Assembly: GCA_039621445.1 (NCBI GenBank)
Contig: CP154954.1
Coordinates: 41,719,572 to 41,783,571 of the forward strand
DNA from: Euglena gracilis
Taxonomy: Eukaryota
Direction: 5' to 3'
DNA: 64,000 nucleotides
The notes under the pieces were generated by a model, which was given only the letters and a program-made list of their open reading frames with translations, was not told the origin of the DNA and made no database searches. Both the position numbers and the translations under genes were made by a program. Positions 1,338 through 64,000 of the stretch are shown here, one piece after another. Numbering within the stretch: the stretch's first letter is position 1; the number at the start of each line of letters is the position of its first letter.

Positions 1338-1342
1338 GCAAT

Positions 1343-1446: not shown

Positions 1447-1455
1447 TTTTGGCAA

Positions 1456-1653
1456 GTGTACCCTTTGATACCCCCTTTGACCTGGAGGGGATTTTTGGGT
1501 TATTGAAAGAACAGGGTTGGGGTCAGCCTTGGGCTCTTAGACCTAATTTATAGATTAGTGTTAGGCCTGCGCATGAGTCTAAACTTAGGCCCAACCCTCA
1601 TCCTATTCCTTCAAAAACCCAAAAATCTGCTCTGGGGGGTACCAAAGGGACCC
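1456..1653. mobile_element. Degenerate fold-back / MITE-like element
   Basis: gtaccctttgatacccc pairs with ggggtaccaaagggac; gatttttgggttattgaa pairs with ttcaaaaacccaaaaatc. Confidence 0.55.
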
Positions 1654-2443: not shown

Positions 2444-4302
2444 CCCCGCACCGCTGGGGCGTCGGGGCTCCCTGCCACCGGTGGAGTACGCCGACCTGCC
2501 CATGCTGACGGACCTCGCGCTGGCCGGGGCCACCGCCACCGTGCAGTGCGCAGGGTGGGGCTTCAGGTTTTTTTATTATTGATGGCCGCCCTTGCGGACC
2601 ACCCTTGAGGACCGCCCTCGAAAGCCGGCCAACAGCTGGTGTGGGGCCCGAACGGGGTCGAAAACGAAAAGAAAAAAAAGTGAAAAAAAATTTTCTTTTG
2701 GGTGGGCGATGGCACGAAGATGCGATAAACAAACCCTGTTGTCGACCGGCTTTCGCCGAGAAAAGGTCGAGTTCCCCGCCGCTTTGGAATGTGCTGAAAC
2801 AGGGGTTTCCCTCGCCAAGGATCACCCTGGCCGCACGCCTCCGCCGCCATCTCCGCCACGGCGCCGCTCAGGCACAGCCCTTGGGCTGGGACCGACCCCC
2901 TCCCCCTCCCTCCGCCGACCCGTTGGCTGCGGCTTCAGCGGATCATGCCAGGCCCTCCTGCCCGAGAACACGGCCGTGTCCCTGTCAGCTGCTTCACCAC
3001 CGCTCTTTTTTTCCTGGTGCCGGGTCAGTACTGCCCAGCTCTGGGTGAGGTGTCTTCTAGGCCCCCCCTTCCCGCGATGTGCCGTCAGCCGCGCCGTCCC
3101 CAACCCCCGCCGAGCCCTCTCCGGCCAGCTGCAGCAGTACCTGTCTGCCAGCCCCCCGGACTTGAACTCCAGTCACCCCGCCTCTTTCACCGCCTGCCCG
3201 GACATCTTGGGCGGTAACTGGCAACTCGAGGAGGTGGGGGGGGGGGGGGAGAAAGAGAATAGAAAAAAAGGGGGGCACCTCGAAAAGGCTGGGGGCGGGG
3301 GGGGGGGAGGCGAAAAAGTTGGTTCCGGTCTCCTGGCACCCTGCCGGGTTATTTGGGGTGATTGCAATTCCTCTCTTCCCATTGGGCATCCCACTTCTGG
3401 TATTGTGCGCCGGTCTGCCCACAGGTGTGTAACTTGGACCGCCATGGGTTGGATTTGGGCATTTGGTGCCGTGCCACCCAACCACCCAGCCGACCGGTCA
3501 GGTCGCAGTCCTGGGGGGGAGGGTCAGATTAATACGATGAGGCTATGCTCAAGAATTTTCAAGGGCTAGGGAAATTCTAAGTTGATCGTATAAGCTCCCC
3601 TCCCCCCGGTTTCACTAAGGTGACAAAAATTGCGGTGGGGGTTTTATTGGACAGCGGTCTCCAAAAAAGGCCGCATTCCACTCATGGCTGCGAACAGGGG
3701 TGTTTGTTGGAACAACCAGGGTGTTTGTTGGGCGCGGGGTGTACGCACTCATTCAATTAGAAGTTCCCCACAACCTCACGGAGGAACAGCCTTGCATTGC
3801 ATGCGAAATGACATCTTTTACGTCAGTCCATTCATCCCATGGCCTTCAGAATTCCATCCTGGTCACACTCCAGTCGCTGTCAGTAATGTGCAATCCAAAG
3901 ACGAGGAACGTTGACGACCTTGCACCTTCCCGACCCTGTCTGGTCCAGGGGTCAACCCTTATGAGGTCAAAGTTGGGCAGGATTTTTTGGGCCACAATTT
4001 TCGCCAAAACAGTGTCCCAAAAGCACATGTCGGTCAATTTTGGATTTGGCGGGGGTCAGGCTTGTTCACTTGGCCCTGCAACCTTTCAGGAAAGGGTTTC
4101 CTCCCCACTAAACTGAGGGGGTGAGTCCAGCGAAAGGCGTGGGTGCGGCCAGCTGCTTCGTCGTCTTCATCGGGCAGAACGACATCAGCTACACCGCGGG
4201 GCAGCTGCTCAAGAGCAACTCCGACGCAGCCGTCATCATCGTGAACATCCTCACGGACATCGTGGGGGCGGTGGCCCGGCTGGCGGCGCGGGTGTGTCGC
4301 CG
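2444..4302 (+). pseudogene. GDSL/SGNH hydrolase internal exons, copy 1 (no block I exon upstream)
   Basis: Exon 2444-2554 ...YADLPMLTDLALAGATAT (block II-like); ~3110-3232 ALSGQLQQYLSASP; exon 4131-~4302 CFVVFIGQNDISY...VARLAAR (block III GxND at 4172-4183). GC3-rich codons and AG/GT boundaries. Confidence 0.7.
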
Positions 4303-4330
4303 CCCCAACACGCAAGAGGCCCACCGCGCC

Positions 4331-5425
4331 GTGCGAGATGGGCCGCCACCCAACTTCACTGGTTGCCCATCTCGCACTTAAGCTTTTTTTGGTCGATGTG
4401 CGCATTTTCGCACATCGACCAAATTTTGATTTGGGCGCCGGCATAACAAGGGGCGAGAACGAGAGGGAGCAAGATTGGACAAAATACGGGCGATTTCTCA
4501 TTTTGGGGACCGGCGCGCCGGGGAATTGCATATTTTTTTTGCCGTTTTTTTTTTGAAGTCGGAAATGCGCGTAGACCCCAGGGCCTTTCGCCCCCAAGTG
4601 AAAAAACACCGACGAAAAACCCAAAACCCGGGTACTGCAACCCCCCATTTTGTGCGATGCGGCTCTGCTCGCCGGTTGTTGGTGGCCCTGGCTGGCTCTC
4701 TCTGGGGGTTTTGGCGCACTGTTTTGTTTTTGCAAGCCTCGGTCTTGTGTTCTTGGATGTTTGCCGGAGGGCGGGGAACAAGGATGGGGGGGTTAGGGTG
4801 GGTCTAATCGCGTCACTGGACAGGGACACAGAAAGGAAGGTGTGCCTGGGGAAGGTTGCCTGGGGATTTTGCAGGTGAAGGGAAAGTGGTTTTAAGGGGA
4901 GGGAAGGGTCGCACGTCCTCACCGAACTTACAGTGGGGATATGTCCCGCCAAATTGTGTCGTGATGAAACGGGAGAGGGTATCACACAAATTTCAATGGA
5001 GTGATATATTACAGCCATATTTAGAAAAGGAATAATGTCGATGTGCGCAATTTCGCACATCGACCATTCAATGGTTCCCCTGAAGAACGACCATAAACAC
5101 CACAGAATTCGTTTTGCTGAATGCGGTGCGACAAATACCAATGAGTTTGGGACAGAAGATGGGGTCGCTTTGTGCAAATGCGCACACCGTCAATGTGTGC
5201 GCATTTGCGCAAACCGACCCCATGTGTATTTGTGAAAGGGATGCGAACAAGTATCATGGCACATAAACAGGCCTCGCTGCCTTGAGTCTTTTGACACAAC
5301 AATAGCTGGAAGGGCCTACGACGATTGCTCTGAAAACAGACAGAAATGCAATGAAAAAAACATATGTACCAAGTACCAGGTCGGAATGAAAAAAGTGGTC
5401 GGTTTGCGCAAATGCGCACATGGTC
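4331..5425. repeat. Cluster of palindromes/hairpins, probably subterminal repeats of a non-autonomous DNA element
   Basis: 13-bp arms at 4331-4343/4365-4377; 12-bp arms at 4391-4420; same motif at ~5037-5065; long hairpin at 5161-5221. Confidence 0.7.
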
Positions 5426-5499
5426 GGCGTGACACATTTTCACAAACCGACCACGGGCATAAAGATGGACGTCGTCGGAGTGCAAAATGGTGACACCAC

Positions 5500-6500
5500 G
5501 ATGTGCACACCGACCACGATAGCAAAATTTCGGACAACACATCAAACACGACCCCAGACATCACCAGCAGTGGCTGCTTCGGTGTGCAATTTCAGCTGCC
5601 ACACACCTCCACCACGAGCTTTTTTTCAGGGCCGATTCTTGCCCAGTGACAGGTCCAGGTCCATTTGGAGACTGCAGACCTCTAGTAATGGTCCGCCCGC
5701 TTTTTTGTCACTCTTTAACTCCGCCCCCCGCTGTTCCTCGCCCCCATGGCGTGTGTTTTGCTGCAAATCCGTTCAGGTGATGATTATTTTGTTCCATTTA
5801 CCTATTTGCCCCATTTGAAAGTTTCCTCCAGACCACAACCGTCCCTCTTGTTTCGGGATAAGTGATGCGAATTTCAAGACAAACTTGTTTATAATTTCAG
5901 CTTTTACACCTGGTGATTTGAATATGTTTGTTCCCTCTGAAGCCAACACTCTGTTTGCACAATAGTTTATAACACAGATTTAAAAAAAAATCCCACCCCA
6001 CACCAGTGCAAAAAATTGGTTTTAAAACCTTGCACGTGCAAACCATTTTGCACACTTAGTTGGTAAATAATTTTTCACAAAATCCCATAGTCTCGGACGT
6101 GCGGAAACAATCCCATCAGAACATCCACCCTGATGCAAACCAAAATATCGGGGGTGAAAAAATGTTTTTTGATGATGTCGTTAAACCAAAACACCGACGG
6201 TGCTAAGTGACGTCGTCCTCTTCTCATTCTTTCTGCTGAACGACCAACCTTCCACACGACCCCAACATCACCAGCAGTCCCTCGCGGCGACCACCCTCCC
6301 CACTTTTTTCAGGCCCCGATTATCGTCCCATCAAACAAAGCAGTCACCTCTAAACTCATACCGCCCGCTGGTGGGGGGCAACGTCGTGGCACACGTGTAA
6401 CGGCGCCGCTTGGGCAAGGGGTGGCCCTCGAAAAACCCCCACCACTTGCCCCATGGCTTGTGTTTTGCTGCAAAAGTCACATCAGGTGATGATAGGTGGT
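5500..6500 (+). repeat. Diverged ~0.7-kb tandem duplication (one unit missing in copy 2)
   Basis: acacgacccc..catcaccagcag at ~5546 and ~6255; ccccatggc.tgtgttttgctgcaaa at ~5742 and ~6450; ccgcccgct at 5693 and 6361. Confidence 0.75.
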
Positions 6501-7139: not shown

Positions 7140-7561
7140 CGGAGGTAAAACAAAGGTAACCCCCCCAAATATAAAGCCCCCCCAGGGGGTTTGGTTTTGC
7201 CGCCTAAATGTAAAGCCCCCCCTGACGTGGAGCCAGACGCTGGTGTCATTCAAGAAAAAGTTTGAATTTTTGGGTGGATACAATATTTTCCTCTCCAGAG
7301 ATGCTGCATTTGGGATAAGAATTGCACATTTCTGCGAAAAATTGGAGGTACACAACGAAAATATGGCATAAAATTGGTATTTGGCCACAATCGAAGGCCG
7401 TTGAAGGTCATAGAGGCCACCCAAAAAAGTTTGATTCCCCCCCAAATATAAAGCCCCCCCAAATATGAAGCCCTCCCTGAGGGTATTGAAATCCTGTCCA
7501 AATGTAAAGCCCCCCCCCCCGGCTTTATATTTGGTGGGGGGTTTATATTTATTAGCCACCG
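7140..7561. mobile_element. MITE with ~40-bp imperfect TIRs, Tc1/mariner/pogo-like
   Basis: Left end TA|cggaggt...cccccaaatataaagcc; right end ggctttatatttggtggggggtttatatttattagccaccg; internal aaatataaagcccccc repeats. Right TA is degenerate. Confidence 0.6.
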
Positions 7562-21878: not shown

Positions 21879-21909
<31 letters not shown>

Positions 21910-22020
21910 CATTGTTGTTCATGTATGTACTTATGTAAGTGATGTATGTATGTATGTATGTATGTATGTATGTATGTATGTATGTATGTATGTATGTATG
22001 TATGTATGTATGTATGTATG

Positions 22021-22052
<32 letters not shown>

Positions 22053-22200
22053 TGTGTGTATGTATGTATGTATGTATGTATGTATGTATGTATGTATGTA
22101 TGTATGTATGTATGTATGTATGTATGTATGTATGTGAGTGTATGTATGTGTGTATGTACGCATGTGCATATGTATATATGTATGTGTGTGTGTGTGTGCG
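21878..22200. repeat. (GTT)n, (TATG)n and (TG)n microsatellites
   Basis: Directly visible; (TATG)n ~21943-22134. Confidence 0.98.
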
Positions 22201-43211: not shown

Positions 43212-46193
43212 ACCAGGGAGGTCGGATGGGGGGTGGCGGCGGGGGGGGGGGGGGTCGGCGTCCACCAGTCTCGGCGGAGAGCTGGTGGGTGAGCTAGGGG
43301 GGGGGGGGGGGCAGGGGGTGGCAGAAAAACGGTGCCAGGCCCATTGTGACCGGTCCAAGGTTTAAAGTCCAAGAGGCTGCAAAAGAAATCATGAAATGGT
43401 TGGTGCAACACAAAATACATTTGCATGCTGACGTCGGGTTGTGAGACAAATCAGCACAAATTCAACAAACCATGGAGAGAGCTGTGTCTCACCGCGGTCT
43501 GAAGGAGGATGGGGCGTGCACTGTCGCCACATATGATTGTAAGGGAGAGGGAAATGGGCCTGGTGTCATGAAAGGTGGGAGTTGGCTGGAGGTGAAGGAG
43601 GCGCTGATGTAAATTCATGTTTCCGAGGGTGTTCTCTAGCTTTTCTTCTTTCCCTGCAATTTGGGAGATGCTGTTCTTTATGTTTTATGTGAGTTTATAA
43701 CACAGTGGGTCTTATTGCGGAAACTTGGGGGTTCGCGGTGAAGAGGATTTGGGCTGCCCCACTGGTGTGTTTTGACTGAAATGAGCTGCAAGGGAAATTT
43801 GTGGATGAAATTTATGCGCAGAATTAAAAAGGGTGTTTAAAGCAGCGTTTGCGTGTAAGTGGTCCTGCATAGAAATGGTTTCATTTCAGCAGCCAGCACC
43901 AGATGGATGTAATGCAGGGGGAGTTTCCTGATAGCTTAAATGGTGGGGCATTTGTGCGTGAGTGGGGTGGGTAGTGGGTGGAGGCAGAGTTGGGCAGGAT
44001 TCCCGGGTGCCGGACAGGGGTTGGCAGGGGGGTGAGTAGTGGGCACCATGCTTGGCGGGTGGTGGGGGATGGGCTGGGCGGGGCTGGTCGAATGGGGGGG
44101 GGGGTGGCAAAATTCCGAGAGGCAACAAATCAATTTGCTAGTGCATGCAAACCACGTTTGCATGCTGATGCCAGGCTGCGAGATAAAATCAGCACAAATG
44201 CATGATTCGGGGCTGGAGCAAGCAAAGGCCAGGTACCGGGTTGGAGCTGGCCTTTGAATGCAGGGGCAACGGCGGGCAGCCAGGTGGCTACCGTGTGAGT
44301 GTGGGTGCTGTCCGGTGGGGACGGGGGGGTGCGCCCAATGTGCTGTCGTGCCGTGTCTGGGGGTTTAGGGTGGGGGGGGCGTGTGCGAGGAGCTCCGGGG
44401 GGGGGGAGGAAAATGGGCCGCCGCGAGCGTTGGCGACCGGACCCGATCTCCTTGGTCCGTGGCCCGTTCATAGGCTGGGGTTGGGGCCGGGCCAGGACAG
44501 TAGAGCGAACGCCGGCGCTGATGCCCGGCACGAGCCAAGCACCCACACACAGGGTGGGGGGGTGTCTGTCGGGGGGGGGGTTCCGCATGCTGTGAGGGGC
44601 CCGTCTCTGGATTTTTGCAGCAAGTGCGCGGGGGGTATCGTGTGGGTTCGGGGCTGGGGTGATGCTGATCTGAGTAGGGGGGGAGTTAATGGGCACAAGG
44701 TCTGAGCGGTGCCAGACCGTGGAAAGTCAGGAGGGGGGGGGCCTGGCGCGGGGGTGGGGGATTTGTCCCAGAGGGCTGGTGTCGCCCCGGTCAACCCAGT
44801 TGGTGGTACTGCATGATGATGCCAGGGGTGGCCCGGCACTCTCAGAGGAGGACTGGCGGGTGGCTATCAAAGAAAGGAATAAATATGCTAAATTTTTATT
44901 TTAAAAAAAAACAGAGGAGCCTGAGGTTGGGGTGGGGGTGACTGCCACTGTGCACTCGCTGGGGGGGGGGGCGTTGTGTGCCTCCGAGGGGTTCTTCATG
45001 TAAGCACTAACCTCAGGTAGGGGTGAATGCGGGTAGGGGGTGTCTGGGTCATTCGGGGCTAGAGCAAGCAAAGGCCAGGTACCGGGTTGGGGCTGGCCTT
45101 TGAATGCAGGGGCAACGGCGGGCAGCCAGGGGGCGATTGGGGGAGCGTGGGTGCTGTCCGGTGGGGGACGGGGGGGGTGCGCACAATGTGCTGTCGTGCC
45201 GTGTCTGGGGGTTTAGGGTGGGGGGGGGGGCGTGTGCGAGGAGCTCCGGGGAGGGGGGGAGGAAAATGGGCCGCCGCGAGCTTCGGCGGCCGGGCCCGAG
45301 CTCATTTCTCTGGTAGGTGGTGGGGTGGTCCGGACCCCCCGCGGGCCAGGAGCGGGGGGGGGGGGGGGGTCGGCGATGCCGGTGCCTGCTTGGGTCATCA
45401 CAGACAGAGAGGAGGATGGCGGTGGCGGCGGAAAAAAGCGTCCCCGGGTGGGTGCCGAGGGTTTTGGCTGTGTGGCGGGTGGTGGAAGGGCCGGACGTGG
45501 GGGGAGTGCCGGTCGCGAACATCGTACGATGATCCCGCCGAGCGTGAAGGGCAGGGAACAGGGCCAGGGCGACGAGGAGGGGGTCGTCTGCGGCGGTGAA
45601 CTTCGTACGAGGATCCCGCCGAGCGCGAGGAGCAGGGAACAGGGTCAGGGCGACGAGGGAGGGGGTCGTCTGCGGCGGTGAACTTCGTACGATGTGCACG
45701 CCATGTTGAACGGCAGGGTTGATGATGAGGGCGATGGGCGAGGTGTCCTGGGGCAGAGGCGAAGTACTTCGTATGATGACCTCGCTGCGGGGAACAACAG
45801 GGAGGGACAGGATGGCGACGAACAACAGGCTGAGTCGTCGGTGAACTTCGTACGATGACGTTGGGAGGCAGGGGATGGGGGCGACGGTGGCCCGGGGCGG
45901 GAGGTGGATGAGGGCGTGCCCGCTGGGGGGGCAGAGGCCGGGATGGAATGATGGGGGGATGAGGGCGTGCCCGCTGGGGGGCAGAGGCTGTGATGGGGGA
46001 TGAGGGCGTGCCCGCTGGGGGTTAAGTCGGAAGGGACCCCGGGGGTACCACCAGTTCACCATACCTAGGTGTGTCGTCGAGTCCTGGGACCTATTCCATC
46101 ATTTGTCCTCCTATCCTAATATAATACACTTTTGTTGTTTTCGGAGCCTGACAACGCACACAGAAAAGGTTATTCAAAAAGCAAAAAAAATTC

Positions 46194-46520
46194 GTTGTTG
46201 TTGTTGTTGTTGTTGTTGTTGTCATTGTTGTTCATGTATGTACTTATGTAAGTGATGTATGTATGTATGTATGTATGTATGTATGTATGTATGTATGTAT
46301 GTATGTATGTATGTATGTATGTATGTATGTATGTATGTATGTATGTATGTATGTATGTATGTATGTATGTATGTGTGTATGTATGTATGTATGTATGTAT
46401 GTATGTATGTATGTATGTATGTATGTATGTATGTATGTATGTATGTATGTATGTGAGTGTATGTATGTGTGTATGTACGCATGTGCATATGTATATATGT
46501 ATGTGTGTGTGTGTGTGCGT
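46194..46520. repeat. (GTT)n/(TATG)n/(TG)n microsatellites, copy 2
   Basis: Directly visible. Confidence 0.98.
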
Positions 46521-50757: not shown

Positions 50758-50851
50758 TTGGACAAAAGTTCGAGGAGAGGAAAAAGGAGAGTTCAAAAAA
50801 AAGATCCTACGCAAAAGCTGAGTTCCAAGAAGAAGGACAAAAAGCTTTACA
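50758..50851 (+). repeat. 5' LTR remnant (last ~95 bp only)
   Basis: Aligns to 58661-58750, both ending ccaagaagaaggacaaaaagctttaca. Confidence 0.9.
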
Positions 50852-50853
50852 AT

Positions 50854-50864
50854 TGGTAGCAGAG
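50854..50864 (+). promoter_or_regulatory. Primer binding site, initiator tRNA-Met type
   Basis: tggtagcagag 2 nt after the LTR-terminal CA; complementary to the ...CUCUGCUACCA 3' end of eukaryotic tRNAiMet. Confidence 0.85.
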
Positions 50865-51161
50865 AGGTATCATCTACCTCGACTTGCTGTCCTATCCTAC
50901 CCGTGGTCGCCGTCGTCGGAAGTCGTCGGAGAAGCGACACCGCCGAGAGCAACAAGAGGAGAAGAGAGCCTCCGAGGAGCCGCTCTGACCTTCCCTCTGA
51001 CCGCCTGACTGGACCCTGCCTGACCCACTCCTTTGTGGTCGGCCCCCAGTCAAAGCTTTTTACTAAGGCCAGCCGGACAAAGCCCACCCCCGGGGAGAGA
51101 CAAAGAAAGAGAACCCTCTCAAGTGTGAAAAGCCATAGCGTGAGCCTGTGAGCCCACCGCC

Positions 51162-52265
51162 ATGACTGAGTCACCACCGCCTGAACAAGAGCCTGAGCAT
51201 CAGTCCACTCTACAGGACATCGAGGAGAAGCTGAAGGACCTCGAGCTCAGAGTCTTCGGCCACGAGTCCAAGGACTCGTCAACCCCTCTCGTTTCCCCGT
51301 TCACACCCCACTCTTTTTGGGAGAAGAGGATTGAGAAGTTCAAGGGTAGCTTGGAGTTGAAAGAAAGTTCTGTGACAGCCAAACTCCCTCCTATCCCGTT
51401 GCCTTCGTTTGATGGTTCGGACCTTGAAGCCTTTTTGAAAGAGTTTGAACGTTGGTTGCGTCTTTCCGGTGTGAAAAGTGCCCCAGAAGCTTTCCAGTTG
51501 GATTGGCTCATCCAATGTGTTGTTCCCAAGTACAGAAAGGTTGTTGAAAAGGTTGTTGAGGATCAGCCCCAGCTTGACAAAGTGCTTTTGGCATTGTCCC
51601 AACTGTTTCCGAAGCTCGAGAACGACCTTACGCTTCGGGAATCCCTTGACCATCTCCAGTCCCTTTCAGCCACCCCAGACCCAGCCACAGTGAAAAGGTT
51701 GTTGGTTGAGTTTGAGGAGGTGACAGCCAGAATGTCAAAGGGAGCTTTGGGAGACCAGGAAAAGTACCTATACCTCTCCAAGAAAATTCACCCCAAGATG
51801 TTTTCTGAGTTGAGACAAGACAGGTACTACAAAAGGAGGACAGAAACTTATGAGGACTTGAAAGTTTGCTTGCTGGAAAAGGCCCAAGAAGATTGGTTGG
51901 AACGTCATCTTCAAAAGAAAATTTCGCTGCATACTCTCCAGGAAACACCCCAGCCACAAAAATCCCAAGGAGACTTGCCCATGGTTGATTCCCAGGTTTC
52001 TTCATCTTCCAAGCCTTCAGGGTTTTCCCAGGTGCAAGGCAAAGGAAAAGGCAAAGGAGTTTACCCCAAAGGCAAAGGAAGTGGTCCTGCCAAAGGCAAG
52101 GGCAAAGGCAAGGGTTTTTCCCATGTGCAAGGTGTGCAAAGTCAGCCCAACCAACGTGGACCCCCTCAGTTGTCTGTTTCTCTTTGGTGCAAGTTTTGTG
52201 GAAAGAAAGGTCATTATGAGGACAAATGTTGGAAAAAAAACAAGGAGGAAAGAAAAGCCAAATAA
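51162..52265 (+). CDS. gag: Gag with CCHC zinc knuckle
   Basis: 367-aa ORF; LPSFDG..LEAFL.EFE capsid-like start; CKFCGKKGHYEDKC; (GK)n tract. Confidence 0.92.
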   Translation: MTESPPPEQEPEHQSTLQDIEEKLKDLELRVFGHESKDSSTPLVSPFTPHSFWEKRIEKFKGSLELKESSVTAKLPPIPLPSFDGSDLEAFLKEFERWLRLSGVKSAPEAFQLDWLIQCVVPKYRKVVEKVVEDQPQLDKVLLALSQLFPKLENDLTLRESLDHLQSLSATPDPATVKRLLVEFEEVTARMSKGALGDQEKYLYLSKKIHPKMFSELRQDRYYKRRTETYEDLKVCLLEKAQEDWLERHLQKKISLHTLQETPQPQKSQGDLPMVDSQVSSSSKPSGFSQVQGKGKGKGVYPKGKGSGPAKGKGKGKGFSHVQGVQSQPNQRGPPQLSVSLWCKFCGKKGHYEDKCWKKNKEERKAK

Positions 52266-52352
52266 AAGGAGAAAAGTTCACCCCCATCCTCACAAACCCC
52301 CACACAACAACCCGATTCAGCCAAAAAGAGGAAAATTGACACACTCCACATC

Positions 52353-52720
52353 TTGAAAGGTACATCCCTCATCACCAATGTGACCATCAATGGGACATCC
52401 CTCAAGGCCATCATCGACAGTGGTGCAACAACAAGTGCCATTGCCCGGAAATGTGTTCCACCAGGTGCAATCATCAGATCGATGGTTGTCCCCATCCAAG
52501 TTGGAAATGGTGATGTGATTTTTTCGGATGGGATAGCCGAGCTCACTCTCCAATTTGGGGAGAGCATTTTGAAGCAAGAGGCGTTGGTCATCCAAACAAA
52601 TGCCTTTGAAGCCGTTTTAGGCATGGATGTTTTGACCAATGAAAAAGTGGGTGGTCTTTTGACACAACCCCCCCCTTGCAAGTTGCTCGTGGAAGGAAAA
52701 AAGTATCCTTTGATGGAAAA
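52353..52720 (+). CDS. pol: Retroviral-type aspartic protease
   Basis: LKAIIDSGATTSAI and AVLGMDVL; same frame as gag, beyond the TAA at 52263. Confidence 0.93.
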
Positions 52721-52759
52721 TGATGGTTCAAGGATTCATCGGATTTACCGACACTTCAA

Positions 52760-53250
52760 AAGGGAAAGTTACACACTTGTCCCCAATGTCAAAAAGGAAG
52801 TTCTTTCTCGTTTGGAAATGAACGATTTTGACATCGAGGTGGACCTATTCTCAAACCACAGGAATTTCCAAGAGGCTCGGTATTGTACGGGGCGAACAAC
52901 TCAGTTATCTACGATTGGAGTCGGATTGGAGAAAAGGAAAGTTCCATTTTGTGGGCGAATCCTCCTTTCTCGGTCCTCGACCGAGTTTTGACCAAGGTGG
53001 CCATGGAACCTCTCCGGATGGTTTTAGTTTGCCCGGATTGGGGAGATTTTTATTGGATACAAATTTTGGAAAAGCTTTCCATTGCTCAAGTTCAAGTCCC
53101 CAATGGCATGGAAACGTACCGTTCCGATTTTCAAGAAAAAGCATTGCCAGCCCCACAATGGAATACAATTGTTTCAGTTTTGGATTCCAAGTCGAAAAGC
53201 ATCCCGATTTCGGAGTTGGACCCCAAGATCGTGAAATGGATTTTGAGAAA
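52760..53250 (+). CDS. Dam-like DNA N6-adenine methyltransferase domain (1-nt frameshift at ~52890)
   Basis: EVDLFSNHRN...YCT / NSVIYDW...ILWANPPFSVLDRVLTKV...MVLVCPDWG..YW; NPPF at 52958-52969. Confidence 0.85.
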
Positions 53251-53504
53251 TGTCGGAAATGGGATTTGGAGCATTTGGTGAATGAACTCAAAAAGTACCC
53301 CAAAGTGAGTGTTGAGGGCATGGAAAGGGAGATTCAAGTGGATGTTGATGAAATCCCATTGTCTCCCCCCGTTTCACCCATCTCATCCTTGCCCCATGAC
53401 TCTCTTTTTCAGATGGAGAAAATACAAGTGTCATCGAAGTGGGTGCGGAATTATCAATCGAAGTGGATTTGAGCTTCACCGAGTAGGACCACAAGCCAGC
53501 AACA

Positions 53505-56500
53505 ATGGTGTCAAATATTGAAGAATTGGAGTTCAATGGAGCCGATGGTATGGAAGTCCGAGGTACCCCCTCTTCCCCCTTCACCGTTTCGGATGGAGAA
53601 TTGTCCAAGGTGTGTGAAAAGCTTTTGCAACAAATTCCCGTCCCACAAAAAGATGGTTTGTTTGACAAGGAAACCGAGAATTTGCATGGTGATTTGCAAG
53701 GTGATCTTGCCCGTTTTGAAAAGGAACCCCAATTGAAAGTGCTCCTTGAAAAGTACATGGAAATTTTTGGTCTTCTCCCAAGTACCGGCATGGGTTGTCA
53801 ACTCGTCCAATGTGATTTGAAACTCAAGGATGAGTTCAAGGGGAGGGTGATCCGTGGCAAATGTTGGCCAATGAGCGAAAAGGATTCCATGGAAATTCAC
53901 AAACAAGTGAATGAATTGGTGGAAAGTGGGTTGGTGGAGAGCTACCCCAAAGGAAAGACCCCAACCCATTGTTCTCCAACATTTTTGGTGGAAAAGAAGG
54001 AAAGCCAATCGAAAAGGATGGTGGGCCAATACAAAAAGGTCAAGGACCATGTGAAAAGTCGTTCGGCATTTTTACCAAACATGGAACAAATGGTCGAAAA
54101 TTTAGCCCAATGTCGATAGAAATCAAAACTCGACCTAAGAAGTGGGTTTTGGCAAGTTGGTTTGAGTGAAAGGGCAAAAAAACTCACCGCATTTGTCACC
54201 CCGAATGGTCAAGTGTGGCAATGGAATTGCATGCCATTTAGAATTCAAGCCGCACCCACAATTTTTCAAGAACTCATGGAAAGGGTGATTTCGGAAATGA
54301 AGGAAAATCCAAAGGTTGCAAATTTGTTGGAACCGAAAAATGGCCAAAGGAAATGTTTTGTGGGAGCATTTTTCGATGATGTCGGGGTGGGAGCATCGAC
54401 CATCCCCGAACATTTGTTTTTGTTGGAGGAACTTTTCAAAGTGGTGAAAAAGAACAAGCTCCGAATAAAGTTGACCAAGTGTGACTTTTTGAAAGAAAGC
54501 ATTGAGTACCTTGGTTTTTCGGTTCAATGGGCATCATGGAGGCCAAGTGAGAAAAATATTCAAGCTTTGGTGGATTTCAAAGTGAAACGTTTGAAAGATC
54601 TCCGTGCTTTTTTGGGAGCTTGCAACTTTTTTCGTCGCCATGTGAAAGCATTCACATTTTCAAGTGCGGACTTGACCGATCTTCTCAAGAAAAATGCAAG
54701 ATTTGTTTTGACCCAAAAAGAAGAAAAGCTCATCCAGGACATCAAGCAAAAACTTTTGGATGCGGTGCCCCTTGGGGTACCACGGTCGTGTGGAGAAATG
54801 GTTGTCATTACTGATGCCTCCGACCGGGGGGGAGGTGGAACGATTTTTCAATGGCAATCGTTGGACCCCTCTCAAGTCCCTCAAGGATTCACAACCCAAG
54901 GTATGTCCAAGGAAGGTGTGCTCATTCACAATTACCCAAATGAATTTCGGTTGGTACCCATCGGGCATTGGAATTGGAAATGGTGCCCCACAAGATCCCG
55001 GTATTCCACCTTTGAACAAGAACTTTTGGCCGGTGTGCTAATGTTTTCAACGCAAAGTCGAATTTTGCAAGGTTTGCCGGTTGTTTGGTTTTGTGATCAT
55101 GAGGCCCTCAAGAATTTCCTGGACAAAGAACCCCCCGTGAATCAAAGATTGAGACGTTGGTTTTGTTTTTTGGGTCAATTCATGATCAAGATTGTGCATA
55201 CACCCGGAATGAAAAATGAGTGGTGTGATTGGTTGTCAAGGAGTCATTTTGACCAAAAGTTCAATGTTGAATTCGAAAATTTGGCAAAAGTTACATTCGA
55301 AAAGATGGACTCCCAATTGGATCTTTCTTTGCAAGTTTTGTCGTTTGAGATGAAAGATTTCAATTTTCCATTGGATTACCCATCGAGTGATTTTGCCGAG
55401 ATTTGGGAAAAATTGGAACCATGGAAAGCTCAAGTCATCGATGATTGTTTGTGGTTCAAGGCCAAAGACAAACTTTTTTGTGAGCGAAAATTGGCCATCC
55501 CCAAGGAAAGTCTTCCCCAAGCGTCATCGTGGCTTCATCGAGCTCATGGTCATCCCGGTCCCGAGCGGACGCTTTGGTCATTTCTCCAAAATTTCCATTC
55601 ATCCCTCTCAAGAAAGGATTTGTTCGGTTTGTTTCGGAATGTTTTGGGTTCGTGTGAAACATGTGTCATGTCAAAGCCAAGTTCACAATCCGATCGTGGA
55701 CTTTTGGGTTGTTTGCCAATTCCTCCCCTTTGCAACGACATCATTTTTCTCGATTTTGTCGCCCTTGATGAATTCAATTCTTTTGATTACGCTTTGGGCA
55801 TTGTGGATGGTTTGAGTCGGTTTTGTTTGTACCTCCCATGCCACAAAGAAGTGACGGGTGAAAAAGTCTTGAAGATGATTTTGAAAGAATGGGTGGAAAA
55901 ATTTGGTCGCCCCAACGAAGTTTTGAGTGATAATGACATTCGCTTCAAGTCAAGTTCCGGTTTTTACCAAGAGGCCATGAAATCACTCGGAATCAAGGTT
56001 TCGTTCTCTCTTCCGAGGCATCCTTCATCAAATGGTTTGATGGAAAGAGAAACTCGTTCGTTTGTGCAAACATTGAGATGTCTTGTGCACGAAACGGGTA
56101 CAAAAGATTGGCCAAAGTTGCTTCCGTACGTCAATTTTCTGATGAACAGCCAGATTTCAAGTTCGACGGGAATGTCTCCATCGGAACTTTTCCTCGGTCG
56201 ATCTCCATGGAAATTCGAAAGTGTTGGAGAACCGTGTGAAAGCCCATCTGTCGAAAATTGGATTTTGGAACAGATTTTGATTCAAGAAAAGGCAAGTTTG
56301 AGGCTGAAACATCTCAGAAGTTTGGCGATGGAGCGGAAAAACAAGGTTCGAAAACCTGCCGTTTATGAAATTGGTCAATTTGTCCTCGTCCACAAGTCTC
56401 GATGGCCCCAGAGAAAAGTCGAAAAGATCGCCAGTCCATGGTTTGGACCCTACAAAGTTGTTCAAGTGCACTACAACTCTTTGCAAATTTTGGCATCTCC

Positions 56501-56560
56501 ATCATTGGGAGGTTTGGTGAAAGGTTTCGTTCTCCCAAGTGAAACACTGGAGTTCTGTCC
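53505..56560 (+). pseudogene. pol: Pol: RT - RNase H - integrase (in-frame TAG at 54117-54119)
   Basis: SPTFLVEKK, SKLDLRSGFWQ, TAFVTP, MPF, AFFDDV, KC.F....EYLG; ITDAS, EQELLA, CDH, N...DWLSR; H..HGHPG...CETC, LDFV, SDND, SNGLMER; WFGPYKV. Confidence 0.96.
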
Positions 56561-57579
56561 ATGACCCACACAATGACACTTCGTTTTTGTCAGAGGAGTG
56601 TGAGGAATTTGATGGTGCACAAACCCCTGCTTCATTCACAGGTCACACACACGACCGAGGAACAGGCGGCGAACAGCGAGGCGCAAGCGACGCACACAGA
56701 GGCGCACGCGACGAACGCACGACAAAACCAGAACACGACAGAACAAGGCCAGAACAGGAAACGCGAGGCGAAAGGCCCAGAACAGCCGAACGAGCACGCG
56801 ACGCACGGCCGAGCGCACGCGACGAACCCCCAGAAAGACCAGAAGGACCCAACCCCCAGAAAGACCAGTTTTCTTCTAATTTTCCCTCTCAGATGGTTAC
56901 CAGAAGTAAGGCCCGAGGGCCAGAATCAAGTTTCAATTCAAAGAATTCAAATTTTGGAGTTGGTCGACCCAGAGGTGAATCGAAGAGAATTTGGCAGAAA
57001 AAGTCGGAGTTTGAGAAGGACAACCTGGAGGAGAGTGGTCCAGATGGACCTTTGCAGCAGGCTGCTGCAGAAGCTGCTGATCACCTTGAAGTTGATGTTC
57101 AAAATGTTGATGATCTTGCTGTTCAACTTCCACAAGATGAACTTCAACATGATGGTGTTCTGGGGCCTGTGGCCCCAACACTGCAGCCCAGTGCTGCAGA
57201 TTCTGTGCCTGTTTTCCTAGTTTCACAGTCAGAACCAGAAAAAGTCAGCAGTTTTGCTTCAGAATGTGTTTCAGATTTGCCCAAAACAGCCAGACAGTTT
57301 TCAGAAATGGAGGCTGCAAAAATGGGTTTTTACAATGTTGAAGCCATTTTGGATCACAAGTTCAGAAATGGTTGGAGGTTTCTGACAAAGTGGGAGAATT
57401 ACCCAGTGCATTCATCAACATGGGGACCAGTCAGAAGTTTCATTTTGCCAGGTGGAAGAATGAACTCAGTTTTTCAGAATTACATTCATGACAGTGGTTT
57501 GCAAGAGGTTTTGAAGAAAGTGCAGAAGAATGTGAATACCCAACCCAGTCCAGTTTTCACAGTCAAACTGTTTCCATGA
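56539..57579 (+). CDS. Integrase C-terminal linker and chromodomain (~57328-57490)
   Basis: FYNVEAILDHKFRNGWRFLTKWENYPVHSSTWGP; joins IN if one G at ~56523 is removed (LVKVSFSQVKHW). Confidence 0.88.
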   Translation: MKHWSSVHDPHNDTSFLSEECEEFDGAQTPASFTGHTHDRGTGGEQRGASDAHRGARDERTTKPEHDRTRPEQETRGERPRTAERARDARPSARDEPPERPEGPNPQKDQFSSNFPSQMVTRSKARGPESSFNSKNSNFGVGRPRGESKRIWQKKSEFEKDNLEESGPDGPLQQAAAEAADHLEVDVQNVDDLAVQLPQDELQHDGVLGPVAPTLQPSAADSVPVFLVSQSEPEKVSSFASECVSDLPKTARQFSEMEAAKMGFYNVEAILDHKFRNGWRFLTKWENYPVHSSTWGPVRSFILPGGRMNSVFQNYIHDSGLQEVLKKVQKNVNTQPSPVFTVKLFP

Positions 57580-58319
57580 AATTTGGTGCCTTGGGCATCA
57601 GAAACTGACCCCAGCATGCACAACCAGCCAAGAAAGCAGAATAACCCCTCTCTTTTCTAAGTGCCAGCCCAGCTGCTGAGGAGTAGGATGTCTGGGTGCA
57701 GAAGCCACAGGGCCAGAAGGCACTTAGGTCTTGCACCTAAGAGTGGAATCAGCCTGAATTCGAATGCCATTTTGGCCAGGCCATGATTCTACCATCAGGT
57801 TCGCCAGCACCAGACCACAAACCACAACAAGTCATCTGATCATCTTCATCATCATGTTCTTCTTCATCATGATCATTTTTCAGAAGCTGTTGTTGTTCAC
57901 CATTTTGATGAAGATAGAGCTGTCGTTCTTCATTTTGATGTTCGCTGACTTTGGTGTTCTTTGTCTTGATGTTCACTGTTGGACATGTTGTTCACGGTTC
58001 CGTCTGGAATTTCAGAATGATGTTTGATTATGGCTTTTCCCAGTTTTTGTGTGAGAGAGAAAGGCCAGAGAGAGAGCAAACGGGAAAGAGAAAGAAAACC
58101 CCCCCACAGCCACAAACGACACAAGCTGGCTGGTGTAAAAAGTTTTTGATTTCTCTTCCACTGCCCCCTGACCAAAAAAAAAACAACAAAAAAGTGAACA
58201 ATTGATGCCGCTTTTACGGCCCACGTTCACGAGTCCAAAAAAAAAAAAGACCCTCGCCTGAGAATTCAGTCAAGTCTTTTGAGCCCGCTTTTTGTGTGCT
58301 TGGTGGGCTTTGCTTCACC

Positions 58320-58330
58320 AAGGGGGGGGA
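58320..58330 (+). promoter_or_regulatory. Polypurine tract
   Basis: aagggggggga just before the 3' LTR TG. Confidence 0.75.
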
Positions 58331-58331
58331 T

Positions 58332-58750
58332 TGAAAAGGTGGCTTTGGCTACCTTCCCCCCCCCCTGACCTCCCTGGGCAGTGGATGAAAGAGACCCCCT
58401 TTGCTCATAAAAGAAAGGTGCAAGAACCTGACTTCACAATTGGCCCATGTGTCCTTCATGGGGGGGGGGCTTCCACAAAGGAGTCTTCCCCAACGCCCCT
58501 CCCAAACCGCCCAACCACATTCTCTACTGATTCTTACTGTGACGTTCCTGACTTTTTGGTGTACATATGTCTCACCTTTCTGCACAGGCTGGCCTTGGTG
58601 CTTTGTTAAACAATGTGTTTTATGCTTGTGGATTGGAAGTAAAAGTGCCACGAAGGAGGATTTGGAAAAAGGTCGAGAGAGAGGAGAGTTCAAAAAAAAA
58701 GAAGGATTCTACGCAAGCTTAGTCCAAGAAGAAGGACAAAAAGCTTTACA
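58332..58750 (+). repeat. 3' LTR (419 bp)
   Basis: TGAAAAG...CTTTACA imperfect terminal IR, preceded by the PPT; 3' end matches the 5' remnant. Confidence 0.85.
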
Positions 58751-60045
58751 CAAACCCGGCTGGGCGACGCCTTTGAACCAGTTCGGAAATGGATCGGGAG
58801 CGATGCGTTGTGCCCCGAGGACACTTCCCACCATGACCAAGCTTGGTGGAGTGAACAGCTACGGCTGGCCGCACGCCCGGCATTTCTGTCCGCTCTCAAT
58901 GATCGGGACCGGATTCGCTTTGAGCATCAACATAATTCTATCTGCTCGAGCTGGATCGGGGCCCGCCCATCCAAGGCGGCCGGGTTTGCCGTTGACGGAG
59001 CGTCTTTCCGCCTCATGCTAAAATGGCACCTAGGGTTGCCCATCATCCCCCTCAGTCTTGCCGGTTCCCCCTGCCCCCTCGGCTGCGGACAGGTCGTTGA
59101 CCCTTTTGGTTACCACGCCATGTGCTGCCACAAGAACAAATTGTGGGAACGTCACCATCGGGTACAGCACTTCCTGGGGACCCAGGTGCAGGCACGAGGT
59201 ATCCCGCATGCTCTGGAGATCTCGGTGGCCGCTGACCAGAAACGGGATGCGGACATCTTCCTTCCCCACTGGTCCGGCGATGCGTCCTGGGCCATTGATG
59301 TCGGCATCAACCACCCCTCCCCGCCCAGTGCCAGTTGGAGCCTCCCCGCCTGGTGGGAATTACTCCGCAGCAGAGCCCTTAAGAAAACCGCCAAATACGG
59401 AGGCCGCTGCCAAACCCGAGGTGCGCGGTTCTCCCCCATGATCCTCAGCGTATGGGGTTCCTTTGGGGGAGATGGCCAACGCGTATGGGAGGAACTACGG
59501 CAACGTCTTGGCGCCACTGCCTCCGGTGGCGCCCGGAATGTCTTCCTGGCTGAGCTACAACAGGGTCGGTCCTTGGCCCTGTTCTCTGGGGTGGCCACCC
59601 AACTTGGGGCCCTCCTCATAACCAAGGAACTGGGTCACACCGTTGCTGCCTTCTGAGCACGGCACCCTCCGCTCCCGGGTTTCCATACGCCCTGGCTCCT
59701 CACGCTCCGTCCAATGATAATGGACATGGCTTCGGCCGGGCATTGAGCTTGCCACCCCGTTCCCCACTACACTGCCCCTCTCGCCGCACATCCTTCCCTC
59801 CACCCCCTCCCCTCCCTCCCTCCCCACGCAGGGGACTGGCTACCTACACAGCGCCGTTCACTTGTCACCTAACCCCTACAACCTCTGCTTCTACCGCCGC
59901 CATTCCCTTCTGTCTTCATGTGCGCACCCTGACTTTCCATGGGGCTTCCCCATCTGTTCACTAGCCTTCCCCCCTGAACACCTCAAATCCAGTAGGCTGC
60001 GCCACTGGTCGGTGGATTTGGTTCGCCCCACCACCGCAGTAAAAA
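58751..60045 (+). mobile_element. 3' part of a CRE-clade (REL endonuclease) non-LTR retrotransposon; ORF ends at 59656
   Basis: Frame open from 58751; CPLGC...DPFGYHAMCC...RHH, RDADI...AIDV, KKTAKY, FSPMILSVWG. 3' end approximate. Confidence 0.85.
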
Positions 60046-60615: not shown

Positions 60616-63310
60616 TTTTTTTTTTGGAGGGATGGGATGGGAGAGTGGTTGGTCAAATTGCTCACTCCGTTTCATATGGGCTATGGGTGGTGGGATCCAC
60701 CGCTCCAGATGGCTCCGCCACTGTTCCTCAAGCCAGCTGGCGGGCCACTTCTCTTGCCAATGTGAGACACAGGTTGTTGATGGTTGGGTATTGTTGTTTA
60801 CTTTTTGACGAGTTGTGGATGGTTTTAGGACAATTGTTTGTTCTGGGTCTAGGGATCGTAGTGGTCTTCTTTACAGACAATACGGCTGGTGTATGGTGTT
60901 GGTAACTTCTGGATCTGTGTCGTTGCCTGCATACCGTCCCCAGATTACTTGTCGCGCGATCTCTCGCGCAACAGTTATTGATAGAAGTTGCCATGTGTTG
61001 GCTTCAGTTTTGCGTTTTGACCATGCATCTTGTTGACCGAGGAGAAGTTTCATCAGTGTTGACATTAAGGTTAGCGCTTCTTGGCCTAGGCCGCCATAGC
61101 AGTCAACAACAAATGGAATGCAGGTCCATCCCATCCTCCTACAGGTGGCGTCATATTTTGAATGTTTTTCCTTCTCTTGGCGTTCATACCATTCGGTTAG
61201 TTCAGCTGTGTCACGCAACGGTCTGTACGGTGCTGCTGTGTGTCTCATTGTGATATCCACTGCTCCAGGACCATTGGCGTCAAGTCTGCTGATGAGGACA
61301 TCGCCCGGGCGTGTTCTCTCTGGACCTCCTTGTTCTTTTTTTGCTGTAAACCCTGCATCATGTGCCAGTTGGAACACAAAGTCCTGGATTGCACCATGTC
61401 GCCGCGTGATGCCATTTGAGCTGCATCATACAAGGTGATTACCCAGGTTGTCCATTGGCTTGGTGCAGCGTGGGCACGTTGATCCCGTTGGTGGACAAAC
61501 TGGTGCTCCCAGTGACCACTTTAGAAATCCTTTGAATTCGGCAGAAGCGACCAATGTTTTCAGTCCACAGGATGGTGTGACAGAAGCCCAGGCCATTGTG
61601 TGGGGCCGCTGTTGGCTTGCGAACCGGACGGCGTCTTGACCGTGAAGGTTGGAGGATAATACCTTTTACCGTTGTTTCGCAAAGCACTCACCCCACCACT
61701 TCTTTTGAATGTGAGGGCTTTGGGCTCCGTTCAGGAGTGATACATCCGCGGCCCATGTTTGCGTTGGGGGAGTTCCTTCGGGGATGGAGTTGGCAGAGGA
61801 CAGGCACTCCGCAGTGTCTTTCGGTACTCCTCGGTCTGCCAGGCCAAAGGTGCGTCTGCCATTGCTGACAAACGTCACAATGCCGGATATACGTGCCGGG
61901 AGACGTTCCAGCGATGGGTCCCGAATTCCGAGTCCGCCATGACGCACGGGCAGGGTGGCCTGAGCCCATTGGTTGTCATCGATTGGGGATCCAACAATGT
62001 TGCTCATTGTGTTCCTGATTTCTTTGGTCAACAGTGCACATGCGTCATTTGCCTGCCCCAGTTCTGTTGCACGCATGAGGTCATTAACTTTGCATGCATC
62101 TAGGCATGATCGTAAGAGGCAGAACTGAATATGGGCTTGCGGCAGGTTCAAAAGGGCCCGGCAAGCTTTCTGCACACCTGTTGCACGTTCAGCCCACACT
62201 TCCCCCGCAAAGCCACCGCTTTGTGGATGGCAAACCGAGATTCCCAGGGCCCGTATACCAGAATCGGGGGAGTAGTTCACGATTGGGACTGCACGAAGTG
62301 GGCTGTTTGGCGGCATTTCAGCACGATTGGCTTCTGTTGCTGCAGGGCCCCACATGCGGCATTTTTTTGTGTTGAGGTGTATGCCTAGTAGCGTCCCCTG
62401 TCGTTGAATTTCTGTAATTGCTGCATGTAATTGTGGGAGGGTTCCCAGGATGTGTCCATCATCCAAATACCACAATTGCAGTGGCACCACGTCTTGCAAG
62501 GACTCAACGAGAGATTGCAACGCCAAGGCGAATCCGGCTGGGCCACAAGGGTCACCTTGTTGTACGCCAGAGGCACTGCGAAGGTGTGATGACCCACAAA
62601 AGAGCGGGCTGTGTTCGGCGTAGCAGCTCTCGAACCAAACGTACGCCTCCGGGCAGCGTTTAGCCACTTCAGCAAGGACTGTCTTTCTTTTTACGCAATT
62701 AAAAGCATTGCTGAAATCTACCTGTAACAAAGCCCAGGTGCTGTCCTGTTGCATGCGCAGGTGATTTACTTCTTGCTGAAGTCCCATAGCAATGAGTTCA
62801 CATGCCCCCTGGACCCCTACACCGCACTGTAGTGGCTGCAGTTCTTTAAGGCGGTCCCTGATTTTGGGGTGCCTCATCAAATATTTGCCCACCAATCGGC
62901 GCAGGCATTCCCCAGCCGCAATTGGTCGCGTGCCATCCTTCTTTGGGTCATGAATGGGGTTGGTATTGCCAAGCTCATCAAGGTTTTCGCTTGGATTGCA
63001 GGGTTTTCGAAGAGGAGTCAAACGGGCACCAGCGAAAATCCATGCCGCAGAGTTGTGGATTCCGTTTGTCAAACATGTTCGGACGAATTGGTCCAAAATT
63101 GTGAGGAGTTGTTCTGATTGTGTCCCCAGGGGATCAGAGAGCATGTCTTTAAGATGATCTGGCCGAAGTCCGGACGGTCCTGGTGAGGACTCCTTCGGGA
63201 AAGACATGACTGCTTTCAGTATTTCAATTAGGCGCTCCCTGGTTGCATCTTCACTCAGGTCGAATTCGAGGCGAGGGAAGTACGGAGGCAGATTTTGCCT
63301 TCCAGGTTGT
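60616..63310 (-). mobile_element. 5'-truncated CRE-clade non-LTR retrotransposon (RT + CCHC + REL), two premature stops
   Basis: SSPGPSG, RPIAAGE..RRL, LQCGVG, VDFSNAFN, GVQQGDP, WYLDDG, GGLG. Frame continues through TAA 61666-61668 and TGA 61426-61428 to CPRC..MDNLGNH...RRH, RPGDV...AVDI, KEKHSKY; stop at 60871; A10 tail at 60616-60625. Confidence 0.93.
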
Positions 63311-64000
63311 CTGTCTTGTTATTTGTCTGGGTCGCGCAGATTAACCAAGATCAAGGTGTGAGGCTATTCTTATTTTTTTAAGTTTTCTTATTTTTTTGCG
63401 GAATTATTTTTTTTGCATCTGCGTCGTCAGTGGAACCTTTTTGGCCCATGTTTTTTTCTTCGAGAAGTTGTGGAAACATTCATGGAAGACAATTGTCTGT
63501 TGACACCCCATTTGGGGGGGGTGGCGTTCAATGTGCGTTGTCCTCCATTGGGGATGGGCCAAAATTTGGCCACTTTTTCAAAAAAAAATATGAAAAGAGT
63601 CACTTTTTTTTGGCAGTTTTTTTGGGTCGGGATGGAGATTTTTAAAGTTTTTTTTAAGTTGGAAAAATCAGCACAATTGTTTTTGGGCCATTTTGGGCGT
63701 CAAAGAATTTTTGTGACCCCCTGGGAGCCATGGCACGTGCAGTGCATGGGGGGGGGGGGTGGCAAATGGGGTCAAACGGCGCGCCTGGTCCCCACAGTTT
63801 GGGTCAGCCATGTTGATCCAAAATTATTGGCGCAAAGTTTCAGAATTTTTTGAGTAATGTGAAAACCCCAGCCCCCCCCCCCCCAGGGGATGGGGTTCAG
63901 GGGGTGCTGACTCAAAACGTGTCGGAAATTTCCAGTTCCAGTCGGTTTCACCTGACTCAACCTGACCCAAAAACCTTCAAATATTTTTTGGCCAAGAACC

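Follow-up and report, generated by a model that had tools for sequence, protein, structure and literature searches.

A decayed Ty3/gypsy chromovirus of Euglena gracilis with a Dam-type methyltransferase domain between protease and reverse transcriptase

Can a long terminal repeat (LTR) retrotransposon that uses a DDE integrase carry an adenine methyltransferase of its own, and if it does, on which nucleic acid would the enzyme act? The question is raised by a 64,000-nucleotide (nt) stretch of the Euglena gracilis genome (GenBank assembly GCA_039621445.1, contig CP154954.1, forward-strand positions 41,719,572 to 41,783,571), which we call the window and whose own numbering is used throughout. 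An initial annotation, made from the letters and open reading frames (ORFs) alone, had placed a Dam-like N6-adenine methyltransferase (MT) between the protease (PR) and the reverse transcriptase (RT) of a Ty3/gypsy element. By identity and architecture, 50758-58750 is very probably a Ty3/gypsy chromovirus insertion, now decayed, of the kind recently described as DAM-LTR. The order of domains in its single gag-pol polyprotein is gag, PR, MT, RT, RNase H, DDE integrase (INT) and chromodomain (Table 1). Pfam matches run from PR through RT and RNase H to the DDE integrase along 52377-56024, with RVT_1 at 1.3e-21, RT_RNaseH at 1.2e-11, rve at 1.3e-8 and Integrase_H2C2 at 2.6e-3 in the RT-integrase part, and are collinear by tblastn with P0003, an intact relative introduced below. 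The extra ~180 amino acids (aa) between PR and RT are a Dam-type MT module (PF05869, DIRS-type), and no Phage_integrase match was returned by Pfam in any polyprotein scanned. That a Dam-type MT lies between PR and RT of a gypsy element with a DDE integrase is borne out by Pfam matches in relatives, intact polyproteins and predicted fold.

The relatives show that the arrangement exists in working order outside the window. A search of 5.8 billion proteins with the 129-aa MT core of the window matched P0001 at E 7.6e-44, a value that excludes a chance match, and a region search with P0001 brought the number of polyproteins to five altogether (P0001, P0003, P0004, P0005 and P0006). In three of them the frame is open from gag to chromodomain (P0003, 2076 aa; P0004, 2039 aa; P0006, 2286 aa); P0001 (1774 aa) is without interruption but cut at both ends by its contig, and P0005 (1322 aa) loses the frame past RNase H. 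A scan of JGI metagenome contigs, in which one of 31 pattern matches was confirmed as a locus, yielded L001, a 7792-nt contig with one 1988-aa open frame (176-6142), the same domain order, a 70-nt terminal overlap and the same motif resembling a primer-binding site (PBS); the LTR end of L001 is also resembled by the 5' LTR end of the window copy. There are accordingly four uninterrupted full-order polyproteins of 1988-2286 aa, all from public metagenome assemblies, and the intact PR-MT-RT frame that the annotation had proposed to look for in other copies is present in them. Among shorter proteins, 29 of 204 candidates match at E<=0.01, many of them starting in the protease and continuing into the MT domain. 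When an MT-only profile (A2, built from 9 sequences) was run against 1.84 billion cluster representatives, 1654 matched at E<=1e-3, 366 at <=1e-10 and 88 at <=1e-30, and in 6 of the 10 longest matches listed the Dam segment is immediately preceded by PR. The family of PR-DAM-RT chromoviruses appears to be abundant in environmental data: in one public sequencing run alone (X1), 1531 contigs, representing many contig variants, aligned to a 1935-base stretch of the element.

Two further sources were considered and set aside. X16, a leaf-litter RNA library (share 0.15), gave 24 contigs, covering 21 of 30 bins, with an in-frame stretch at 52909-53387; it was dropped as evidence of expression or habitat, DNA carry-over being possible. 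P0034, a 207-aa protein on an 856-kb contig, was likewise dropped as a prokaryotic Dam or bacterial link, and is more likely a eukaryotic copy because its hhalign alignment (98% probability) spans the retroelement-specific ESYTL...LFA...NPPFS context. The commonest ESM Atlas taxa for the MT domain are Preaxostyla, Mollusca and Nematoda, an assignment that is thin and inconsistent, each taxon resting on 1-14 members.

The copy in the window is dead. The residues on which the initial annotation drew are indeed there, HFKRESYTLVPNVKKEVLSRLEMNDFDIEVDLFSNHRNFQEARYCTG in frame 0 (ORF 52266-52991) and ANNSVIYDWSRIGEKESSILWANPPFSVLDRVLTKVAMEPLRMVLVCPDWGDFYW in frame 2 (ORF 52832-53281), and the frame does change, as proposed, at a G run (52889-52892), where two of the five collinear pieces in alternating frames found by tblastn with intact P0003 meet (high-scoring segment pairs (HSPs) 51198-52889 and 52892-53314). 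The proposal that a missing G is the only interruption does not hold: a second frameshift near 53247, inside the same domain, severs its last two helices, and further lesions lie elsewhere. Altogether there are 4 frameshifts (near 52890, 53247, 53418-53422 and 56521), the first three of them in homopolymer runs, and 2 in-frame stops (53484-53486 and 54117-54119); it is because of these, and of a 5' LTR cut to 94 nt, that we regard the copy as dead. No target-site duplication is readable with only 94 nt of the 5' LTR remaining.

Not all of this damage is shared by other copies. Contigs of four public runs (X1, X2, X8 and X16) were aligned to 52266-54200 (1935 bases) and their depths summed. An extra letter at 52887 is carried by 279/279 of the summed depth in X2, 6736/16269 in X1 and 214/491 in X8, and an extra letter at 53246 by 38029/51484 in X1, 370/370 in X2, 651/1353 in X8 and 11.3/11.3 in X16. 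Other copies thus have the extra letter at both of the breaks that flank the MT core, and these two lesions are therefore not family-wide. Over the same stretch, differences in which the window has A or T and other copies G or C outnumber those of the opposite kind; in X1, substitutions from the window to the others number 15 for A>G and 17 for T>C, against 8 for G>A and 10 for C>T. CpG observed/expected is 0.62 in the window copy and 0.89 in the intact L001 ORF. The skewed spectrum and low CpG both fit the decay of a dead copy, perhaps one with methylated cytosines, by C-to-T change at CpG.

Is the MT domain maintained as the rest of the polyprotein is? Mean pairwise identity among the four full-length polyproteins is 0.54 for MT, compared with 0.59 for PR, 0.60 for RT, 0.59 for RNase H, 0.55 for INT and 0.48 for gag; the spacer between MT and RT and the INT tail reach only 0.28-0.30, and the linker between PR and MT 0.53. 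Judged from these alignments, the MT domain is conserved about as well as PR, RT and INT. The window copy gives similar values against L001 (amino acid identity 0.55-0.57 for MT, 0.54 for PR, 0.57-0.58 for RT-INT); against P0003 the MT core is 56% identical, less than the 77% of RT-INT. The comparison of dN with dS that the annotation had proposed could be carried half way: between the window and L001, dN is 0.39-0.47 (0.39-0.45 in MT, as in RT), and dS is saturated (NG86 undefined or 3.35), hence no ratio is given. Codon positions were counted at 39 distinct places listed (40 of 122 rows, one place occurring twice). Third positions make up 24 of these 39 variable sites over the aligned stretch (binomial p 3e-4) and 13 of the 19 inside the MT region (binomial p 0.002).

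At the level of single residues, conservation was counted in an alignment of 101 sequences. The N-P-P-F loop is nearly invariant (N 97/99, P 98/99, P 94/99, F 88/99), and the domain is conserved in intact sister elements. The D-L-F-A stretch is retained with D in 82/94, L in 76/94, F in 90/94 and A in 81/94 (A or S in 89/94), one lysine is found in 99/99, and the P-x-W that follows beta-5 has P in 100/101 and W in 93/101. The window copy retains all of these residues, except that A is replaced by S, as it is in 8/94 members.

What kind of methyltransferase is it? The initial annotation had suggested a search against Pfam, and the outcome is divided: intact relatives match PF05869 (Dam), and the window's own broken piece matches no family at E<=1, which is why the family assignment rests on the intact relatives. 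With a gathering cut-off of 28.1 bits, P0001 (29.9), P0002 (28.3) and P0079 (29.9) score above it, and P0010 (26.4) and several others just below; across the 101 members, PF05869 is matched by 63 at E<=1e-3 and by 89 at E<=1. An AlphaFold2 model made on P0010 with the 101-sequence alignment (pLDDT 92.8, pTM 0.87) has a class-I amino-methyltransferase fold and places the N-P-P-F loop after strand 66-69. Foldseek ranks human PCIF1/CAPAM first (6irw_B, E 8.4e-6, TM 0.47), followed by KsgA and Dim1, with Escherichia coli Dam at rank 39; VIA-align against 48,161 chains ranks zebrafish PCIF1 first (6irx_A, Z 9.2, rmsd 3.3 over 132 residues), above KsgA (Z 8.2), T4 Dam (7.3), EcoDam (7.0), DpnM (6.4) and M.TaqI (6.1). 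The top structural matches are all adenine-N6 methyltransferases. On the model, therefore, the predicted fold is that of an adenine-N6 amino-methyltransferase, and the scores fail to separate DNA from RNA enzymes. Because sequence points to Dam and structure to a PCIF1-like enzyme, whether the module acts on DNA, on RNA or on a hybrid of the two is a real and testable question.

The answer that takes the largest single share of our expectation, while falling short of an even chance, is that the module acts during reverse transcription. In active copies, MT would be made within Gag-Pol and packaged with RT; it would then methylate adenines while the cDNA is being made, on the cDNA itself or on the RNA:DNA hybrid, such that insertions would arrive bearing N6-methyladenine (6mA), and in hosts with AMT1-type maintenance this 6mA would be kept as transcription-permissive chromatin. 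A model of this kind, with self-marking of cDNA, 6mA maintained by AMT1 and permissive chromatin, has been proposed in the preprint that describes DAM-LTRs (Fernandez-Moreno et al., 22 May 2026, bioRxiv 10.64898/2026.05.21.726589; hereafter the DAM-LTR preprint), according to which 6mA is higher on DAM-LTR copies than on other LTRs in three species, in two of which their expression is higher too.

A number of observations weigh against DNA methylation by a Dam-type enzyme. The window's MT piece is without a Pfam family, most relatives lie under the PF05869 gathering cut-off, and the match spans only about positions 18-83 of a 169-position profile, that is, the motif-I-like and N-P-P-aromatic region. 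There is no sequence-level match to solved structures, phmmer and profile searches of the PDB giving chance-level results only (E 0.93 and 1.4), and the structural scores themselves are middling (best Z 9.2, TM ~0.47), with the RNA enzyme PCIF1, not a DNA Dam, as the top match. Eukaryotic DAMs placed in dam-deficient E. coli produced no rise in 6mA (DAM-LTR preprint), and Iyer et al., in the accessible part of their text (PMC4738411), hold the MT domains of DIRS1 to be catalytically dead and PCIF1-derived. As to the partial coverage of the profile, eukaryotic DAMs are described in the DAM-LTR preprint as being without the CD-1 and TR-1 parts, and the limited PF05869 match agrees with this loss of the first catalytic and the recognition parts.

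Some of these same observations lend themselves to another explanation, tentative and on present evidence unlikely, namely that the module is an enzyme of the PCIF1/CAPAM type that methylates adenine in RNA, or one acting only on the RNA of an RNA:DNA hybrid. The element would then mark its own transcript, for example with cap-adjacent or internal N6-methyladenosine (m6A) affecting stability, translation or packaging, and not DNA. PCIF1, whose catalytic motif is also N-P-P-F, is ranked first by both structural aligners, the rRNA adenine methylases KsgA, Dim1 and Erm come next at Z 7.2-8.2, and the PCIF1_WW profile of Pfam matches 4/101 members (best E 5.7e-6); to this may be added the negative E. 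coli assay of the DAM-LTR preprint, which scored DNA, and the grouping of DIRS1 MT with PCIF1 in the part of Iyer et al. available (PMC4738411). However, by sequence the Dam profile beats PCIF1 by 89 to 4 of the 101 members, the gap in Z between RNA and DNA enzymes is 1-2 units, a near tie for VIA-align, and the top rank of PCIF1 may reflect the lack of a nearer PF05869 structure in the bank. The helical and WW domains of PCIF1 are absent from the element, and the DAM-LTR preprint reports an excess of 6mA on DAM-LTR copies over other LTRs in three species.

A more specific proposal, bolder and less probable again, is that the family represents a further independent capture of a DIRS-type MT by a chromovirus (PR-MT-RT), in a terrestrial eukaryote that is not among the taxa which the DAM-LTR preprint lists, with the module acting in PCIF1-like fashion on the element's RNA or RNA:DNA intermediate and not as a Dam on double-stranded DNA. 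If true, such action on RNA or a hybrid would account for the negative E. coli assay as well as for PCIF1 coming first in the structural ranking.

We consider it quite improbable that the module lacks catalytic activity and is retained for a part that it plays in the structure, or in binding nucleic acid, within the polyprotein or particle. Every DIRS1 MT copy was judged inactive by Iyer et al., as far as the accessible part of that source goes (PMC4738411), the heterologous E. coli assay was negative, the Dam profile is covered only in part, and the domain has no glycine-rich loop for S-adenosylmethionine, its motif-I-like stretch being D-L-F-A-N-H. Set against this is the retention of N-P-P-F in 88-98/99 representatives that are less than 50% identical to one another, and of the acidic residue, F and A of D-L-F-A in 81-90/94, which is hard to explain without catalysis; moreover, the model is a compact and complete Rossmann-type methyltransferase core. 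Whatever probability as to the module's function remains beside these readings and methylation of cDNA or hybrid by a packaged enzyme is left to something outside them. Finally, it is hardly conceivable that the domain order arose by accident at this locus, through nested or chimeric insertion or through misassembly. Heavy damage to the copy, its place at the edge of a 24-kb duplication, and the fact that three of its four frameshifts are in homopolymer runs and could be sequencing errors would favour such an accident, but the same order stands in uninterrupted frames of five independent assemblies, which rules out a chimera or misassembly unless all five are chimeric, the PR-MT linker is itself conserved (0.53), and contig variants are many in the public runs (the 1531 of X1).

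Table 1. Features of the chromovirus insertion, in coordinates of the window
Feature	Position	Strand	Evidence or remark
5' LTR remnant, last 94 nt, ends ...TTTACA	50758..50851	+	82% identity to 58662-58750
PBS-like 11-mer, 2 nt past LTR end	50854..50864	+	same 11-mer in L001 at 7379-7389, 1 nt past LTR end
gag, CCHC zinc knuckle near end	51162..52376	+	ORF 51144-52265 and continuation; collinear with P0003 residues 20-577, 62% identity
Aspartic protease, DSG active site (IIDSGATTSAI)	52377..52637	+	PF13975 2.7e-10, RVP 1.7e-4; residues 38-124 of ORF 52266-52991
MT N-terminal part, frame 0: ESYTL...VDLFSNHRN...YCT; motif-I-like D-L-F-(A/S)	52752..52889	+	translation, tblastn
First frameshift, frame 0 to frame 2, in G run	52890..52892	+	translation, tblastn break
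MT core, frame 2: LWANPPFS (catalytic motif IV), LTK, VLVCPDW, beta-strands to LDPKIVKW	52892..53246	+	
Second frameshift (frame 2 to frame 1, A run), then last two MT helices ...WDLEHLVNELKKYPK	53247..53303	+	
MT-RT spacer, poorly conserved; third frameshift ~53418-53422 (A run), in-frame stop 53484-53486	53304..53640	+	
RT, RNase H, integrase (zinc domain and DDE core), in-frame stop 54117-54119	53641..56522	+	77% identity to P0003
Integrase C-terminal tail after fourth frameshift	56521..57579	+	HSP 56521-57546; pol stop 57577-57579
Chromodomain	57331..57429	+	PF00385 Chromo 6.3e-6, 26.4 bits, cut-off 25.1
3' LTR end (...TTTACA)	58662..58750	+	LTR start lies somewhere past 57580, not fixable given the truncated 5' LTR

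The PBS-like 11-mer presumably matches initiator tRNA-Met at its 3' end. The coding part of the element family also avoids TpA to an extreme degree. TpA observed/expected is 0.16 in the window copy (51144-57579) and 0.21 in the L001 ORF (176-6142), compared with 0.55 in flanking host DNA and 0.41 in the ORF of a neighbouring non-LTR RT. In L001 the avoidance spans all codon phases and extends across codon boundaries, where 7 TpA are observed and 80.6 expected; ApT observed/expected is low as well, at 0.74-0.78 in the element and 0.96 in the host. The avoidance of TpA might belong with a PCIF1-like action on RNA or a hybrid.

Upstream of the element lies a segmental tandem duplication of ~24 kb, in which 2416-26433 and 27421-50757 are ~98% identical and the boundary between the second copy and the truncated 5' LTR falls exactly at 50757/50758. 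Each unit has internal repeats, an array of 8-nt tandem repeats (~21880-22200 and ~46190-46520) and 10-kb stretches in which GC skew is strongly positive (0.2-0.4). Downstream, at 60871-63318 on the minus strand, there is a second retroelement without LTR-type domains, consisting of a 550-aa RT ORF (RVT_1 3.6e-13) followed by a 184-aa ORF whose Cys/His-plus-acidic pattern resembles the C-terminal part of the plus-strand ORF 58643-59656, which starts right past the gypsy 3' LTR. It may be a non-LTR element of the restriction-like-endonuclease type, which it resembles. Pfam gave no match on the Cys/His-plus-acidic ORFs and a single RVT_1 on the 8 flanking ORFs, Rfam returned 0 matches and ARAGORN 0 tRNAs. 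For the neighbouring non-LTR RT, Streptophyta are the commonest ESM Atlas taxon, on the same thin and inconsistent basis (1-14 members).

How does this element compare with known systems? With phage and bacterial Dam (PF05869) the family shares the motif-I-like and N-P-P-aromatic region (profile ~18-83); it differs in matching only that part of the profile, with scores at or below the gathering cut-off. PCIF1/CAPAM is the top structural match of both aligners and has a weak PF12237 match in 4/101 members, whereas the family profile, run against the PDB, matches none of its PCIF1 chains at E<=10, and the WW and helical domains are missing. DIRS1-type elements have an MT detected by the same profile, PF05869 being the published profile for detecting it according to the part of PMC3783388 available, and in two Phytophthora/Pythium papers that name PF05869 it is listed as a search profile only. 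Elements of the DIRS1 type have a tyrosine recombinase, inverted or split repeats, no protease or DDE integrase, and an MT that follows RNase H; the window element, in contrast, has PR, rve, a chromodomain, a direct LTR remnant, a PBS-like motif and an MT that precedes RT. The DNMT-carrying retrotransposons of de Mendoza et al. (2018, PMC5890265), as described in the accessible part of that paper, likewise join a captured DNA-modifying enzyme to a retroelement polyprotein, but theirs are C5-cytosine methyltransferases and the module here is of adenine type. Retroelements that have their own nucleic-acid-modifying enzymes show mobile DNA manipulating the epigenetic marks of its host. A distant match of the MT-only profile, P0137 (959 aa), has MT at 123-267 and a weak PF00145 match at 666-734 (19.8 bits, cut-off 22), and is possibly a DAM-plus-DNMT element like the 'EpiLTRs' of the DAM-LTR preprint.

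The closest comparison is with the DAM-LTRs themselves. The initial annotation did not recognise the architecture as standard; such elements already have a description in the DAM-LTR preprint (May 2026), the only one that our literature searches returned, which reports 10,030 eukaryotic DAM proteins and five DAM-LTR lineages, counts chromodomain-bearing LTR elements as 30.9% of the transposable elements with DAM, and presents itself as the first description of DAM domains in LTR elements other than DIRS. The structural inference drawn from this locus is correct and independent, but no longer novel. The chromodomain-bearing DAM-LTRs share with the window element the Ty3/gypsy type, RT, a DDE integrase, a chromodomain, a Dam-type domain in the ORF of RT and an Asn-Pro-Pro-aromatic pocket, and the P0010 model matches in outline the eukaryotic DAM fold of the preprint, a small beta-sheet flanked by helices. 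Compared by description only, the nearest in features are the 'Chlorophyta DAM-chromovirus-like' elements and part of the Euglena group. In the Chloro-Ochrophyta lineage, the sole one whose DAM position is given in the text, DAM lies between integrase and RT, in contrast to the PR-DAM-RT order found here, and the sources of our relatives, metagenome assemblies and one leaf-litter RNA library, fall outside the preprint's survey. To the DAM-LTRs described so far, this locus adds an independently found and well-conserved family of PR-DAM-RT chromoviruses, with L001 as an intact reference and a high-confidence model of the domain.

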